This document shows, piece by piece, positions 24,001 to 30,000 of a stretch of DNA of 53,721 nucleotides. Origin of the DNA: Microcystaceae cyanobacterium (GTDB taxonomy: Bacteria > Cyanobacteriota > Cyanobacteriia > Cyanobacteriales > Microcystaceae); assembly GCA_041746575.1 (NCBI GenBank), contig JBGTGT010000083.1, positions 1 to 53,721 of the forward strand, given 5' to 3'. Position numbers: made by a program. The first letter of the stretch is position 1; each line of letters begins with the position of its first letter.

Positions 24001-27000
24001 ATACAGTGACTGTTTTCTCAGAAAATCTCAATCAACCTTATTGGTTAATCATCAATGCACCCCCTTCTACCCAAATTAGCGGAGAAATTCGCCTGAATGA
24101 TCGCTTGATTCAGCGACTCAATTCTCCTTCTCTTCGTCTTAATCTTATGCCCTATCTAGGTTTGGGTCGTTATCGCTTGGAAATTATCGGTCACTATACG
24201 CCATCGGATAACGGGATTGAACTGTCTTTATCGGGTGGAAATACGCAAATTAACCAGCGAACGGCGGGAAGTGGTGTAATTAATCACATTATTAATCTTG
24301 AGGTCAAATAATAAAGCATGAATCGTATTTTATTGAGTACCCTATTATTTAGCACTCTGACGTTGCCGACGTTAGCACAAAACACTGATCAAAGTGCTTC
24401 AGCAGAAGCCAATATCTTGGGTAATAACAATACCGTTAATCAGACGATTAATCAAACCATTATTTATCATCCGGGTATTGTCAATCGTCGGGAAAATAAA
24501 GAAAAAACTGAAAATCGAGGACAGTCTCGTTCAAGATTTCAGGGCGAAGAAACGACTAAAAAGAAACAAAAGCACGGCTATAACAATCTCATTTAGATTG
24601 TAAATCAAACTAAAAATAGAAAGCGGGGAACAAACAACAGGGGCGGTGTTTTCAGCTTTTTTCTTATTTAACTATAATGATCGAACTTGAGCAATAATAG
24701 CACGATGACGGGGACTAATAGGGGTAATTTGTGGGGTTTGAAAACCTGCCTCTATTAAGGCTGAAACTACATCTAAGGTGAAGTATTGATCGAGATAAGG
24801 TTCGGTACTTTTGAGCAAGGTTAAGACGTAGGGAGGCATTTTTCGATATACTTCTGAACGAGGATTCATGTCCATCATCGCAAAGTAACCCCCATTGCCT
24901 AAAACCCGTCTGGCTTCTTGAAAAATCGCTTTAGCGGCACTTTGAGGCAGTTCATGAAACACCAGAAAGGCAGAAACGAGATCAAAGCTGTTATTTGGGA
25001 ATCCTGTTGCTTCTGCGGCAGCGTGAAGCCAAGTAATGTGATGATTTTCGTAGAATTGACTCCGATATTGTGCTACAGCAAGACAATAAGCCGATAAATC
25101 CAGTCCGGTAATCTGAGATTGGGGATAAGCCTTTTGAAGGGGAAAGGTACTTAAGCCCGCACTACACCCAAGATCAAGAATATTTTGAGGGGGTTGTATT
25201 AATTGAGATTTGAGGACATGATGGTAATTTTGACGAATTTTGGCATCTCCTTCAATGCTAATGCCTTCTGTATCCTTCCAAATCGTTGAATGTACCGCTT
25301 TTGCCGCCGATTCTACTTCTAAGGCCGCTTCCCAACACAAATTCCCCTGCTCATAGGCATGGAAAGAGGCTAGATAATAATCAGGATAGCTTATTTGAGT
25401 ATTTTCTATTTTTGTATATACTTCTGTCCAATTCTGAGCTTTTTTCAAAATTTTTACATTATTTCGCCAAGGAACACCTATTTTTTCCGCACGGTTAATC
25501 ATCATCTGACGTGCTTGATATTTTGCGATGTTCCACAGGGGTTTAATAGATAAAAGTCGATTGATAAGATGGGTTGTTAAAGGGGGTTGAGGGGTGGTTT
25601 CGGTGGCATTCATATCTATTCAAAGAGAAAAAAGACTCAACCGATCATCATAAATAATTCAGATCACGGAATAGTCAAAACGGTGGCGACTGTAACGTTA
25701 CTTAACAATTTTGTTACCGAAAATGTAACTTTATCCCCTTTTTCGGGAATTGACGGCATACTAAAACAAACATCTCGTCCATGAAGGTTTATGATGTCTT
25801 TTAAAGATGCCCGTGATTATCAAATTCTTTTCTTAACGACCTTTCTTTTATTAGGAATTGTCACCAGAGACTGGACGTTAAAAATCGAATTAATTCCTAT
25901 TACGATCGCTGTTTGTTTGATCACACAATTTTTTTTATCACAGCTTAGTGATTTTGTCAAGGCTTTGTTTAATCAGCAAGGAAGCCAAAAGTACCATGCT
26001 CACTCTCGAAAATATCACTTTTTTGAGTTTCTGTCAACTTCTTCTTGGAAAAGTGCTTTAATAACGGCGTTAGGATTGTGCTTACTTTTGCGAGCGAATC
26101 ATTATCAAACGATGATTTTGGCAGGAAGTTTAGCGATTAGTAGTAAGTTCTTTTTACGATATCAAGAAAAGCATTTTTTTAATCCAGCGAATTTTGGCAT
26201 TATTGCCGCTTTATTGTTGACTCAAGATGCTTGGATTTCTCCCGGACAGTGGGGAACGGATTGGTGGTATTTATTATTATTTTTAGGACTGGGAGGCGTC
26301 GTTCTAAAACAAGTGGGACGATGGGATACTTCTGTGACTTTTTTACTTGCTTATCTAGGGTTAGAAGCCATGAGAAATTTTTGGCTAGGATGGAGTTGGG
26401 ATGTTTTGCAACATCAATTGATGAGTGGCAGTTTATTACTCTTTGCTCTTTTTATGTTGACGGATCCTCGTTCCCTTCCGAATGCAACTAAGGGACGATT
26501 AATTTGGGCAGTAAGTATTGCTATTTTAACCTTTATCTTGCAACATAGCTTTTATCTTTCGACGGCGATTTTTTGGGCATTATTTATCGTGTCACCGTTA
26601 ACCCTTATCTTAGATATTTACTGGTCATCTCCTCGCTTTACTTGGCACAAACAATTAACTGTAACCCATAATTTGTAACTTGTTTGTCGAAAAAAATGAA
26701 GAGTTTTTTGGAAAATAATTTTAATTTCTGTAATCTCTTCTTACTTTTTATTCTTCCCAATACTCTCTACTGGAAAATGATAAAACTATCTCAACTCTTT
26801 TTGACTTTTTTCCTAACCCTAATAGTGAGCTTAGGATTCCTAGAACCCGCTTGGGCTTTCTGTGGCTTTTATGTATCTAAAGCTGATAGTAACTTATATA
26901 ATCAAACCTCTCAAGTAATTATCGCTCGTGAGGGCGATCGCACCCTTTTAACGATGGCAAATGACTATCAAGGGGAAGTCAAAGATTTTGCTTTAGTTGT

Positions 27001-30000
27001 ACCTGTACCGGTGGTGATTAAAAAAGAACAAGTTAATATTGGAGATCCCCAAATTATCAATCGGTTAGATAGTTTTAGTGCGCCTCGTTTAGTAGAGTAT
27101 TTTGATGCTAATCCCTGTGACATCAGAGCATTTGATGAAGCGGTGCCTCAGCCTGCACCAGCATCTGCTTCCTTAGAAGCCGGAAAAGTTGAAAGAAATA
27201 ATGCACTCGGTGTAACGATAGAAGAACAATTTTCAGTCGGCGAATATGACATCTTAATTCTCAGTGCCAAAGAATCCAACGGCTTAGAAACATGGTTAAG
27301 ACAAAATGGCTATCAAATACCGTCCGGTGCTAGTACCGTTTTACAACCCTATATTCGTCAACAAATGAAATTTTTTGTGGCGAAAGTGAATCTCAAAGAA
27401 TATGCTAAATCCGACTTTCAAACCTTACGCCCTTTGATGATAGCTTACGAGTCAGCTAAATTTATGTTACCCATTCGTTTAGGGATGGTTAATGCCAAAG
27501 GAGAGCAAGATTTAATTGTTTATTTACTCTCGCCTCAAGGACAAACCGAATTAACCAATTATCGCACAGTGCAAATTCCTTCAGATGTCGATATTCCTGA
27601 ATTTGTTGAGCCAGAATTCAGTAAGTTTTATCAAGCGATGTTTACGCATTCCTATCGCCAAGAAGGGAAAAAAGTGGCTTTTGTCGAATATGCGTGGAAT
27701 ATGAGTAATTGTGACCCTTGTTCTGCTGAACCTTTATCCCCTGAAGAATTAAGAAAAGCAGGAGTTTTTTGGCTTAATAATGCTGATTCTCAAGGACGAT
27801 TTGTCCCCAATTTCCAAAATGTTTTTATCACCCGTCTGCATATTCGTTATCAAAGAGAAACCTTTCCAGAAGATTTAAAATTTCAAGCGACAAATAATCA
27901 ACAACTTTTTCAAGGTCGTTATGTTTTACGTCGTCCGTATCGAGGGGAAATGAAATGTAATGCGGCACAAGGTTATTTAGAATCGGTGAAAACGCGTCAA
28001 GAACAAGAAGCTCAAACTTTAGCTCGTTTAACGGGATGGAATTTGAGGCAGATTCTTAACAAAATTGATTTTGTGGATGTTAAACCCACCACTTGGTGGT
28101 GCAGATTATGGTCTTGTAAAGGCTTTCAAAAATATCGTAATTTTCAGATAAGATAAAGTCACTGAGTTCTAGGAACGCAATTATGGCAATGCTCAACGGA
28201 TCTGATCTATTGGCTCAAAATCAAGAAATAAAGAGCAAAAGTCATCAAATACATCGGACTTTAGGCTTTTTTCTGTCGGGATTGTTGGTTTTGCCTAGCT
28301 CAGTTACCTTGGCGGCAACTTTAACCACTGAAGTTCATCGGGAATCCCTCCTTATCACAGAACCCACAGCGATCGCACCCGAAACCTTAGCGGCTCAATT
28401 TTTTGTTTCTGCTGTCTCTGAGGTGGATGATCCGGCTTTTTTTGCGGCAAATGCTCCTTCTTTAATTCCGTCGACCTTATCCTTTGATGCTGTTGTTGAT
28501 TCTATAGGCCGCTTACGCTTTAATACACCTGATCTAAAGGCGATCGCGGAAGTTTCGACGCTCTCTCAAGTTCCCTCTTCTCAGGTAATGCAAGGAATTT
28601 ATGATTTTCCCAGTTCGCCTATTTCTCCTGCATCGTCTGATTTTTTCGTTTTTGAAGATAATAGCCTTAAATTGAGCAGTCGTCCTCCGGCAGTAACCCC
28701 ATCCTCTAAAATCACTTCCCCCAATAATCAGGCTAATTTACCCTCTAATGGCGGAATTAGTCCCAGTGGCATCAGAGTTCCTTCCTATGCAGGGATTAAC
28801 GTTCTTAACAGTCCTCAAGTATCTTCTGTCCTTGCTCCTTCTGTCGGAAACGGTAGTCATTCATCCGGCACACCCAATAGCATCCGAGCGCAATTGATTC
28901 AACTGTTTCAAGATGGGATAGATGCCCGTTGGGATCTCTATCCGAATGGCGAATTCAGTAAAACCCCCCAAGAGTGGAAGGCAAATCTCTCCGATCAAGC
29001 GAGACAATTGGATCAAATCTATCGTCTAGATGTCGGCGTCGCTTTACCGACAGCCCCCAAAAATATCTTTTTAACCCCTTTAGACTTAAAAGATGATTAT
29101 GCCAAAAACAGTCCTATCCTAAGTCGAGACTATGCTAACGCCTTTTTCCAAGTGAGTGATGACTTCCGAGATTTTTTGCAAGAAAATGCTCAAAAACAAG
29201 GACAAGCAATTACAGAAATTCAGCAAAACCGCCAAACAACCTCTTATAAACGCAATAAATCTTTACCCTCAGCTTACAAACTTTATCCAGACAATTCTGA
29301 AAAAAACAATAAAAAGCGAGCAAATTATACCCCTTTTGGGCGATAAAAAAGCGGTCAAATCCCCAACTTCTGCCTCAAATCAAGGAGCTAATCGTTCTCT
29401 ACGCCAATGATGCCCTTCTATCCAGCAATAGCATAAGCGATCGTGAAGACGGCTGGGACGACCTTGCCAAAATTCAATTCGGGTGGGAATTACCCTAAAT
29501 CCTCCCCAATAAGGCGGTCTTGTCGGTTTTTTACCTCGATACTCTTCCCTTAAATCTTGTAAGTGTTGTTCTAAAACCGCTCGACTTTCGATTACTTGAC
29601 TTTGCGGTGAAGCGATCGCCCCTAATTGAGATTCTAGAGGACGACTATTGAAATAAGTATCTGAGACTTGAGGAGAAACCTTTTCCACCTCTCCTTCAAT
29701 ACGAACTTGCCTTTCTAATTCTGCCCACCAAAAAACCAAGGATGCCCAAGGGGTTACCTGTAATTGTTGTCCCTTGGCACTATTATAGTTGGTATAAAAG
29801 ACAAAACCTTGTTGATCAAAGCCTTTGAGTAAGACCATTCTCGCCACGGGTTTGCCTTCAGGGGTAACCGTCGCTAACGTCATGGCATTGGGTTCGATGA
29901 TATTAGCAGAAACCGCCTGATCAAACCAACGTCGAAACTGATCAAAGGGATCGTTTGAAGTATCAGCTTCCCGTAACCCGTCTTTGGTGTAATTTTTGCG

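Follow-up and report, generated by a model that had tools for sequence, protein, structure and literature searches.

The gene pair and its linkage

The window, i.e., the whole 53,721-nucleotide stretch of contig JBGTGT010000083.1 from a Microcystaceae cyanobacterium that was analyzed, carries two neighboring ORFs:

25794..26678, + strand: RnfD/NqrB-fold membrane protein without the FMN-carrying segment (P0001; 294 aa; PF03116, E 1.9e-11)
26777..28156, + strand: DUF2330 protein, putatively a P35-like beta-sandwich (P0002; 459 aa from the likely start; PF10092, E 6.3e-75)

For the second ORF, longer starts are possible upstream at 26684 and 26698; its cysteines are numbered here from the ATG at 26777.

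Fusions of the two proteins and their predicted complex support the idea that they behave as one unit. At 80 loci with the RnfD-like gene, DUF2330 is adjacent (<500 nt) in 74 and fused in 2, which bears out the pairing claimed in the preliminary description; it is absent at four, one of which offers just 120 nt of room. Fusions account for 10 of 150 distant representatives, and nearly all genomes that have the close type of DUF2330 (35 of 36) also have the short RnfD-like gene. The gene spacing suggests co-transcription. DUF2330 occurs in 31 of the 49 same-order genomes besides the window's own, close to the 29 of 41 Cyanobacteriales counted earlier. It also occurs without a partner, one genome having up to 9 such anchored paralogs. 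Among the neighbors at the 80 loci, we found no recurring donor gene and no recurring metal transporter or regulator.

The membrane subunit and its closest relatives

The 294-aa protein meets the PF03116 cut-off (44.4 bits versus 27.7), and PF03116 is its only domain: the C-terminal PF00175 domain is not fused to it, and the single PF00175 match in the genome sits on a different contig. Other family scores are weak (40 bits versus cut-offs of 207-415). The structural model (pLDDT 88) matches RnfD, RsxD and NqrB over the whole chain (Z 20.6-24.3), including Azotobacter vinelandii RnfD (8rbq_D; Z 24.3, rmsd 3.0 Å, 247 residues aligned); AmtB and urea transporters are also matched (Z 10-11.6). 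In this protein, NPA (130-132) and PG (150-151) flank a deletion of 70 (hhalign) or 74 (MAFFT) residues relative to Escherichia coli RsxD, and RsxD S184-Q-A-T187 falls inside it. The FMN-carrying residue of A. woodii RnfD is Thr156 (PMC11889175), which lies between the NPA of that protein (123-125) and residue 204, where the match to the membrane subunit restarts. The earlier claim that the flavinylated segment is deleted is, thus, correct. Three elements of the subunit stand out:

26172..26189, + strand: H127-F-F-N130-P-A132, riboflavin-pocket motif, equivalent to NqrB N200-F-L-N203-P-A205 and A. woodii RnfD N123
26238..26255, + strand: S149-P-G-Q-W-G154, junction of the ~70-residue deletion in the alignments and part of the predicted docking face
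26451..26468, + strand: F220-M-L-T-D224-P225, second half of the riboflavin pocket, equivalent to NqrB F342 and D346 and A. woodii D249

The NqrB and RnfD residues have described roles as riboflavin ligands (PMC10643135, PMC11889175), and the substitutions N123A and D249A in A. woodii RnfD, matching N130 and D224, abolish Rnf activity (PMC11889175). In all 107 pairs compared, N130, P131, D224, K118, W147, W153, G154 and M221 are conserved, as are T/S91 and F/Y220; H127, the equivalent of NqrB N200, is His in 105. Based on model and alignment, we suggest that the membrane subunit has kept only the non-covalent riboflavin half of RnfD and that it may bind riboflavin. The quinone-site residues F159, G141 and N156 of NqrB map to A88, L42 and W85 (via RsxD, by eye), nothing corresponds to the first 48 residues of NqrB, and the acidic residues E157 and E273 of its Na+ path map to K/R86 and the variable T155. 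No cysteine of the membrane subunit is conserved beyond cyanobacteria.

The genome, which is 99.78% complete, has one PF03116 match and, in agreement with the preliminary description, no match to Rnf-Nqr (PF02508), ApbE (PF02424), FMN_bind (PF04205), RnfC_N (PF13375) or NQRA_N (PF05896), profiles that each gave matches in control genomes. These findings support the conclusion that the membrane subunit does not belong to a respiratory Rnf/Nqr complex. The idea that it is left over from a decayed Rnf operon and lies beside an unrelated gene by chance would fit the weak family scores and the genomes among the 36 in which the genes are apart (4) or the partner is missing (1); however, the intact ORF, 51-66% identity over the 80 loci, the invariant pocket and the repeated fusions largely refute this idea, and it can hardly be correct.

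FMN-less RnfD domains with other partners have already been published (Méheust 2021, PMC8238504; Huang 2024, PMC11334425). Those two-subunit Nqr/Rnf-like complexes resemble the pair described here in having an RnfD/NqrB-type domain that lacks the flavinylation site, what seems to be a site for non-covalent flavin, and one docked extracytosolic partner, and one-way transfer through the FMN-less domain has been proposed for them (PMC11334425, PMC8238504). The present pair, by contrast, lacks the fused PF00175, the FMN-bind partner and ApbE, and its partner is the cysteine-bearing DUF2330. With RnfD, RsxD and NqrB of Rnf and Na+-NQR, the membrane subunit shares the whole-chain fold and the riboflavin ligands but differs in the deletion, in the absence of the other five subunits, in the changed acids of the Na+ path and in the nearly invariant His at the N200 position. 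The same deletion, H-x-x-N-P and T/S-D-P motifs, and a paired or fused soluble partner are found in enediyne UnbU + UnbV and in RnfD-like::FG-GAP/ASPIC-UnbV fusions; there, however, an FG-GAP/ASPIC protein takes the place of DUF2330, and the genes can lie in a biosynthetic context. UnbU, itself one of the published FMN-less RnfD domains, is the name that this sister family has in its Atlas cluster label.

DUF2330, its cysteines and the likeness to P35

The DUF2330 protein clears the PF10092 cut-off (252 bits versus 24.7); no papers on this family were found in the literature searched. The earlier model was of low confidence and matched no fold, and it is superseded by one with a pLDDT of 88.2 and a pTM of 0.85. 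The best PDB match of this model is P35, a baculovirus caspase inhibitor (P35/P49, MEROPS I50), with Z 10.7-11.2 over 208-229 residues and Z 7.2 for the next family. Specifically, uncleaved P35 (1p35_C) aligned with Z 11.1 and rmsd 5.1 Å over 229 residues, and 1i4e_A with Z 10.7 and rmsd 4.2 Å over 208 residues. In BFVD, P35, P49 or apoptotic suppressor is named in five of the top eight rows. The TM-score is 0.27, a 148-sequence profile gave no PDB sequence match at E 10, and none of 13 proteins has a P35 Pfam row. The match is a moderate one on a predicted model, according to which DUF2330 has a P35-like beta-sandwich. The next-best matches are non-catalytic luminal domains, e.g., ribophorin I (Z 7.0). 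A thioredoxin fold, with CxxC at the start of a helix, appears unlikely: none is among the listed structure matches, and the model has CDPC in a loop that follows strand 273-281. The preliminary description had overlooked the likeness to P35, the cysteine at the N-terminus and the variable loop. The elements of the protein are as follows:

26777..26857, + strand: signal peptide ending A-W-A (signal peptidase I type, by eye); AxA or AxG precedes FCGF in 73/73 loci in which the motif was found
26861..26863, + strand: C29, second residue of the mature protein and candidate working thiol, aligned with Cys2 of P35
27116..27205, + strand: C114 and hypervariable exposed loop (115-143), candidate bait loop (pLDDT <50 at mature 91-116)
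27710..27721, + strand: C312-D-P-C315, candidate relay disulfide (co-loss, partner linkage, covariation)
27866..27910, + strand: residues 364-378 (mature 337-351), predicted docking strand for the outer loops of the membrane subunit
27956..27958, + strand: C394, probable structural disulfide partner of C114 (covariation, weak co-loss)

The five cysteines had been described as invariant. This largely holds in cyanobacteria, where 80 of 83 copies have all five, but not family-wide, with 89 of 132 distant representatives. The only cysteine kept across every subfamily seen is the N-terminal one (118/132), also in partnerless subfamilies, where it is the predicted mature residue 1 according to the likely cleavage sites. 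In the 14 representatives in which C29 is replaced, 12 retain CDPC. CDPC, in turn, follows the partner: it is present in 83/83 partner-linked copies and 10/10 fusions and in 0/23 partnerless copies, which represent a few related lineages and one Nocardia; 19 further CDPC-less representatives have an unknown neighborhood. Of the 20 non-truncated representatives that lack either cysteine of this motif, 19 lack both. By contrast, covariation of N112 with Y388 (rank 5, z 9.8), together with a weak co-loss signal of C114 and C394, suggests that these two cysteines probably form a structural disulfide.

The loop is hypervariable, with a consensus identity of 0.26 in cyanobacterial copies versus 0.75-0.85 in the core and a C114-to-T147 span of 32-37 aa (interquartile). 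Asp occurs somewhere in 82 of 83 loops, at no fixed position, and no conserved cleavage residue was found in the loop. In the 1p35_C alignment, model residues 2..347 lie on chain residues 2..300, placing Cys residue 2 in register, and the loop would lie near the place of P35 Asp87 if the +4 offset of residues 9-12 holds. Chains of cleaved P35 align only from residue 9-12, those of uncleaved P35 from residue 2. The differences are considerable: DUF2330 has ~11% identity to P35/P49 at an rmsd of 4-5 Å; it is exported; Phe (F28) precedes its cysteine, while P35 Cys2 has a free amino terminus; and it has in addition CDPC, a disulfide, C-terminal helices and a membrane partner.

These features raise the idea of DUF2330 as a P35-type protease trap or sensor on a non-redox anchor or transducer, in which loop cleavage would alter the docked subunit and open, or signal through, the Amt/urea-transporter-like core. 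The fold, the Cys2 register, the variable loop, the dependence of the alignment start on P35 cleavage, the partnerless anchored paralogs and the AmtB and urea transporter matches would all fit. However, invariant riboflavin ligands would be superfluous in an anchor, CDPC tracks with the partner, and nearby protease genes, including caspase/CHAT genes, are not enriched; we consider this idea distinctly unlikely. Alternatively, the cysteines could bind a soft metal (Cu, Zn, Hg), and the complex would capture or import it, using riboflavin as the reductant or the membrane subunit as a channel. In each subfamily, another sulfur ligand lies close to C29 or CDPC (C-A-C, C-G-G-F-F-C, C-G-C, C-G-M), and iron transporters occur in some NQR/RNF-like clusters (PMC8238504). 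The ligand spacing, however, differs from subfamily to subfamily, Met is not enriched in the cyanobacterial loop (2.2% versus 2.1%), and the loci lack a recurring metal transporter or regulator, making a metal unit quite improbable.

A predicted complex and a possible route to the outer thiol

The complex of the membrane subunit with DUF2330, modeled with FMN included, was predicted with a score of 0.76, compared with 0.00 for the best of three controls. In the reference sets, 116 of 157 solved pairs and 2 of 215 mismatched ones attain the mark, figures that apply only roughly to the present case. The runs agree in at least 91% of contacts, with a partner pLDDT of 70-72. Covariation places the CDPC loop against the docking strand (N308-Q375, rank 2, z 12.1; N311-L377, rank 6, z 9.4). 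The covariation of F28 with W307 dropped to rank 499 with CDPC-bearing rows only, and closeness of C29 to CDPC is not established. The two proteins probably assemble in the membrane into a complex not described before, whose role would be to maintain a working reactive cysteine on the outside of the cell.

The interface and the cysteines also bear on the idea of a capped channel for small solutes or ions, in which the cysteines of the outer cap all form structural disulfides. Such a channel would be consistent with the Amt/urea transporter kinship, with the luminal domains among the next-best DUF2330 matches, and with the lack of cysteines among the confidently named interface residues. However, five cysteines leave one unpaired, the acids of the NqrB Na+ path are changed, and RnfD is reported not to carry Na+ (PMC11889175); we rate this explanation as improbable.

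Our tentatively favored explanation is that the two gene products form a 1:1 complex in the cytoplasmic membrane, in which exported DUF2330 would dock on the outer loops where RnfD carries FMN, bringing the CDPC loop close to the docking strand. A carrier in the cytosol that is not linked to the pair, most plausibly ferredoxin or flavodoxin in place of RnfC, would donate electrons, which would pass via riboflavin to the C312-C315 disulfide, and CDPC would keep C29, the working nucleophile, reduced in the oxidizing periplasm; C114-C394 would be structural. As to what C29 does, the leading guess, carrying about half the weight of this explanation, is the P35 mechanism: a cysteine protease would cut the variable loop and then be held as a thioester. 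DsbD and DsbB are transmembrane thiol relays in which a membrane conduit serves an outer CxxC. The logic here could be similar, except that DUF2330 has no listed thioredoxin fold, the membrane subunit has no cysteine conserved beyond cyanobacteria, and a flavin would act as the conduit.

The kept riboflavin ligands, the restriction of CDPC to the partner-linked group and its covariation with the docking strand make a redox role plausible. Of the stand-alone redox relay proposed in the preliminary description, the independence from Rnf/Nqr and the single unit stand; the relay itself is less secure. Since FMN and ApbE are missing, no known carrier connects the cytoplasm-side riboflavin pocket with the outer face; a linked donor gene and a fused NAD-binding domain are lacking, no cysteine is among the confidently named interface residues, CDPC appears to lie outside a thioredoxin fold, and most representatives that lost C29 kept CDPC. 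Against trapping count F28, the lack of a conserved cleavage residue in the loop, the lack of a sequence-level P35 match, the low TM-score and the unenriched caspase/CHAT genes.

Electrons could also flow in reverse, i.e., DUF2330 would oxidize an outside thiol or small substrate and pass electrons inward via riboflavin to quinone or a cytosolic acceptor, as in DsbB and perhaps UnbU/UnbV. The geometry would be identical to that of the favored explanation, and UnbU adjoins exported UnbV and a polyketide synthase (locus L115; Atlas neighbor at 0.92). Moreover, NqrB riboflavin hands electrons to quinone (PMC10643135). By contrast, the NqrB quinone-site residues are changed, its N-terminal segment is absent here, and the genes of UnbU/UnbV, to which an oxidative role may be ascribed, are described as of unknown function; reverse flow, thus, appears unlikely.

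In a more far-reaching version, which we regard as rather doubtful, DUF2330 proteins would be widespread cellular P35 homologs, i.e., suicide traps in the cell envelope that would catch cysteine proteases by means of a variable bait loop and a cysteine at the N-terminus, here wired to a riboflavin subunit that re-arms the cysteine or reports firing. P35 was said to have no cellular homolog in 2011 (PMC3252740) and was listed as a virus-specific fold in 2015 (PMC4643759); because of these descriptions, a true bacterial homolog would bear on the origin of P35. If the trap reading is true, it would supply the cellular ancestor that has been proposed for P35 of viruses, as well as a novel type of defense of bacteria against proteases. 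More generally, the pair shows how the RnfD core serves repeatedly as a module that can take different outer caps (FMN-bind, ASPIC/UnbV, DUF2330), possibly providing a flavin-to-thiol route across the membrane without a need for flavinylation. For DUF2330, the analysis also gives a first guess at fold and active site that can be put to the test, in a pair that is small, common in cyanobacteria and easy to test.

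A linked gene pair outside Rnf and Nqr

The pair comprises an RnfD-like membrane subunit and an exported DUF2330 protein (PF10092), both encoded on the same strand of the window:

25794-26678, + strand: RnfD-like ORF, 294 aa, with a PF03116 match over the C-terminal half (E 1.9e-11)
26777-28156, + strand: DUF2330 ORF, 459 aa from the likely start, matching the DUF2330 profile (E 6.3e-75)

The pair is neither Rnf nor Nqr, and its relatives are cyanobacterial. At 40 bits, the RnfD-like protein lies far under all curated RnfD/NqrB cut-offs (207-415). The genome, which is 99.78% complete, holds one PF03116 match and one DUF2330 match, and no match to RnfA/E, ApbE, FMN_bind, RnfC_N or NQRA_N, all five profiles being positive in control genomes. 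Closest in working are the two-subunit Nqr/Rnf-like systems described by Huang et al. 2024 (PMC11334425) and Méheust et al. 2021 (PMC8238504), whose membrane domain, according to PMC11334425, has no flavinylation site; yet in these systems an NAD-binding domain is fused on and the partner is flavinylated, features that are both absent here, and the pair does not belong to them. Outside their large gene-cluster tables, which could list DUF2330, the supplements of both papers make no mention of it in the portions available, and a term search of the accessible text of PMC12174285 returned no mention of such orphans. Among papers outside subscription, we found no publication on DUF2330.

Several lines of evidence support genetic coupling of the two genes, in counts that are descriptions rather than statistics, kin among loci and genomes not being independent. 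First, among the best 80 of 587 confirmed loci, DUF2330 starts <500 nt downstream of the RnfD-like gene in 74 and is fused to it in a single ORF in two; no DUF2330 was seen in four, one of which had only 120 nt of room. Second, 10 of 150 distant DUF2330 representatives carry an N-terminal RnfD-like domain, after which come a linker, a signal sequence that has been retained and F-C-G-F. Third, the close DUF2330 type is present in 36 of 151 genomes of the phylum, and in 35 of these 36 the short RnfD-like gene accompanies it, next to DUF2330 in 31 and at another site of the genome in 4. Other neighbours recur only within single lineages, and the ORFs that flank the pair in the window show no conserved association with it. 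A sigma-factor-like neighbour (labelled by eye, with no Pfam match) occurs in 16 of the 80 loci, all Nostocales by title, and was treated as shared synteny. Promoter and terminator scans stayed at chance level (7 vs 9.2 and 3 vs 3.9, respectively).

Other arrangements were also seen. In four genomes from the same family as the window (G068, G105, G111, G129), both genes are kept but lie far apart; the single-contig genome G147 (locus L121) has an intact CDPC-type DUF2330 and no PF03116 match. Eight loci (L049, L052, L053, L057, L064, L070, L105, L110) have two to four tandem DUF2330 copies after one RnfD-like gene; the loops mostly differ between copies, and those of L057 are partial. On a Deinococcus plasmid (L152:6001-7241), DUF2330 is fragmented, and the annotation shows no RnfD-like gene in the vicinity. 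A metagenome scan gave one locus.

The membrane subunit and its relatives

The RnfD-like model (pLDDT 88) matches RnfD with Z 24.3 (rmsd 3.0 Å, 247 residues aligned), NqrB with Z about 21, and AmtB and urea transporters with Z 10-11.6. Relative to E. coli RsxD, 70-74 residues are deleted, S184-Q-A-T187 among them; we take T187 to be the FMN site of RsxD. In A. woodii RnfD, FMN is carried on T156 (PMC11889175), which comes after NPA 123-125 and before residue 204, the point at which the RnfD-like protein aligns again. The core is, in this sense, lidless.

The riboflavin ligands reported for NqrB, i.e., T162, N200, N203, A205, F342 and D346 (PMC10643135), align in that order with T91, H127, N130, A132, F220 and D224. 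Across 107 gene pairs (97 from this phylum, the window's own included), N130, D224, T/S91 and F/Y220 are each conserved in 107 and H127 in 105; that the pair is a mere remnant seems to us extremely improbable. The A. woodii substitutions N123A and D249A, at the equivalents of N130 and D224, are reported to abolish Rnf activity (PMC11889175). By contrast, the acidic sodium-path residues E157 and E273 of NqrB map, by eye, to K/R86 and the variable T155. Because the pocket ligands are kept and the sodium-path acids changed, the membrane subunit looks, from its sequence, more like a holder of riboflavin than a pump for sodium.

The same deletion is found in a gene at locus L115 that has an ASPIC/UnbV gene on one side and an enediyne-type polyketide synthase gene on the other, and in RnfD-like fusions with FG-GAP/ASPIC domains (5 scanned, 4 aligned). 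Thus, the lidless RnfD core serves as a platform for several caps, DUF2330 among them. In the Atlas, an "enediyne biosynthesis protein UnbU" is a neighbour at 0.92, and a search for longer RnfD-like fusions, confined to 1386-3955 aa, gave two ASPIC fusions. Enediyne cassette genes are called of unknown function in PMC9992847, and we found no statement on function in the UnbU and enediyne literature.

The L115 cassette (L115:402-11172; G107:C15), from a cyanobacterium of the same order, consists of the polyketide synthase, the UnbU-like RnfD relative, ASPIC/UnbV and DUF1702, with an unclassified 266-aa gene inside. At L112-L114 and L116-L118, the lidless RnfD is fused to FG-GAP/ASPIC-UnbV domains, a second recurring cap, in proteins of about 930-1010 aa; L117 is cut by the contig end, and L112 has a GH3-family gene nearby.

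Cysteines of DUF2330 and predicted docking

DUF2330 has five cysteines, C29 (residue 2 of the mature protein), C114, C312-D-P-C315 and C394. Of 83 copies of >=300 aa from the 80 loci (87 matches minus 4 shorter ones), 80 have all five and the other three are partial; of the 132 distant representatives kept, for coverage, from the 150, 89 have all five. In these 132, C312 and C315 are lost together in 19 non-truncated proteins and C312 alone in one, and many CDPC-less proteins have C-G-C or C-T-C at the N-terminus. C29 is lost in 14 of the 132, mostly without other cysteine loss. Metal handling by the cysteines is a doubtful reading of the pair.

A partnerless group comprises 22 divergent copies from 15 loci of non-photosynthetic-looking lineages of the phylum and one from Nocardia. 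The fetched 3.5-18 kb around these 23 copies contain no RnfD-like gene, and CDPC is absent from all 23; CDPC goes with the partner in 83 of 83 linked copies and 10 of 10 fusions, a sample of few independent lineages. All 23 have a cysteine directly after an A-x-A-type cleavage site, so the N-terminal cysteine, alone among the cysteines, is shared by all subfamilies seen.

The loop after C114 is fairly constant in length and rich in Ala, Arg, Ser and Pro; its consensus identity is 0.26 vs 0.75-0.85 in the core, and its sequence differs between tandem paralogs. The partnerless paralogs of L122-L134 start C-G-G-F/L-F-C, with up to nine matches in one genome, and most end in a G-C-x-C motif followed by a terminal hydrophobic helix, which resembles a protein-sorting signal. 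The window's own DUF2330 extends ~13 residues beyond the usual W-W-x-x-x-W end, and carries two unconserved cysteines, C442 and C447 (28100-28156, + strand).

The predicted complex of the two proteins scored 0.76, compared to 0.00 for the best of three controls. The mark for this score was reached by 116 of 157 solved pairs and 2 of 215 mismatched pairs, rates that apply only roughly because own alignments were used, fusion proteins stood in both and FMN was included. Runs agreed in >=91% of contacts, and partner pLDDT was 70-72. DUF2330 is predicted to dock through 258-266 and 364-378 on the outer loops R100-N102, Q144-T155, W197-S211 and F253-S256, an interface in which no cysteine is named.

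Covariation within DUF2330 is independent of the predicted complex. N112-Y388 (rank 5, z 9.8) speaks for a disulfide between C114 and C394. That the pair is a channel in which the disulfides are structural is, in our view, unlikely. Among 322 CDPC-bearing rows (Neff 176), N308-Q375 (rank 2, z 12.1) and N311-L377 (rank 6, z 9.4) covary, as they do similarly in a second run, and would place the CDPC loop against the docking strand. F28-W307, which would bring C29 near CDPC, had z 4.4 in one run and rank 499 with CDPC-bearing rows only. Inter-chain covariation (107 pairs, Neff 66) was uninformative, gappy loops dominating and none of the top 30 pairs lying in the predicted interface (0.24 expected).

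We tentatively favour a scheme in which electrons would pass outward from riboflavin to CDPC and on to C29, for which protease trapping is the leading candidate job. Against it, a carrier is missing where FMN was, a donor is missing, a Phe precedes C29, and some representatives lack C29. Oxidative transfer in the inward direction appears rather improbable.

The P35-like fold of DUF2330 and nearby ORFs

The preliminary description had called the DUF2330 model low in confidence and without a fold match. Built on a 148-sequence alignment, the model now reaches pLDDT 88.2 and pTM 0.85, and baculovirus P35 is the sole chain above Z 8 among 48,161 representative chains (Z 10.7, rmsd 4.2 Å, 208 aligned). 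The next matches, a Legionella protein, ribophorin I, M1 aminopeptidase N-domains and a VIT domain, have Z 5-7.2 over 130-170 residues, and a thioredoxin fold is absent from the matches listed in each fold search. For uncleaved P35, chain residues 2..300 align with model residues 2..347 (Z 11.1, rmsd 5.1 Å, 229 aligned), while alignment to cleaved forms starts only at chain residues 9-12. In the viral structure library BFVD, five of the eight top rows bear the names P35, P49 or apoptotic suppressor; the first two places go to giant-virus proteins, A0A8F8PN05 (Clandestinovirus) and A0A6N1NI77 (Tupanvirus), which outscore the P35 entries and may link the families. The P35 match is moderate (Foldseek E 7e-4, TM 0.27, about 11% identity), with no match at the sequence level. 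DUF2330 has a P35-like fold and is no more than a candidate P35-family inhibitor. Neither the viral contigs nor the phage collection gave a confirmed DUF2330 relative, and for DUF2330 the Atlas had unnamed clusters only, all <0.9.

P35 is described as trapping the caspase that cuts it at D87, with Cys2 protecting the thioester (PMC7863939); it loses its initiator Met and is an inhibitor of gingipain-K as well (PMC3375223). C29 is residue 2 of the DUF2330 model. If the +4 offset at residues 9-12 holds, D87 would fall close to mature residue 91, where the disordered loop starts, an extrapolation because it is based on the overall rather than a residue-level alignment. Speaking against a trap, caspase and CHAT genes are not clearly enriched near the module (3 CHAT and 1 caspase matches in 861 kb vs 14 in 4.2 Mb of the own genome, with profiles each built from just 4-5 own-genome sequences). 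A trap or sensor on a membrane subunit without redox function would share this difficulty, and we consider it improbable. P35 was said in 2011 to have no cellular homologues (PMC3252740) and was given in 2015 as a virus-specific fold (PMC4643759); titles and abstract openings searched for cellular or phage homologues yielded nothing on point, and one 2026 preprint had no mention by term.

Two further features lie near the pair. A 387-aa Ser/Pro-rich ORF (28183-29346, + strand) begins 26 nt downstream of DUF2330; it matches no Pfam or NCBIfam family, and a relative was found neither in 109 loci nor in the rest of the genome. Upstream, a row of five short ORFs of 92-144 aa (22706-24596, + strand) is possibly a curli-like secreted fibre cluster. 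All five carry an apparent signal peptide and lack paralogs in the genome, and the first matches the curlin repeat weakly, at an E of 0.007 that misses the cut-off.
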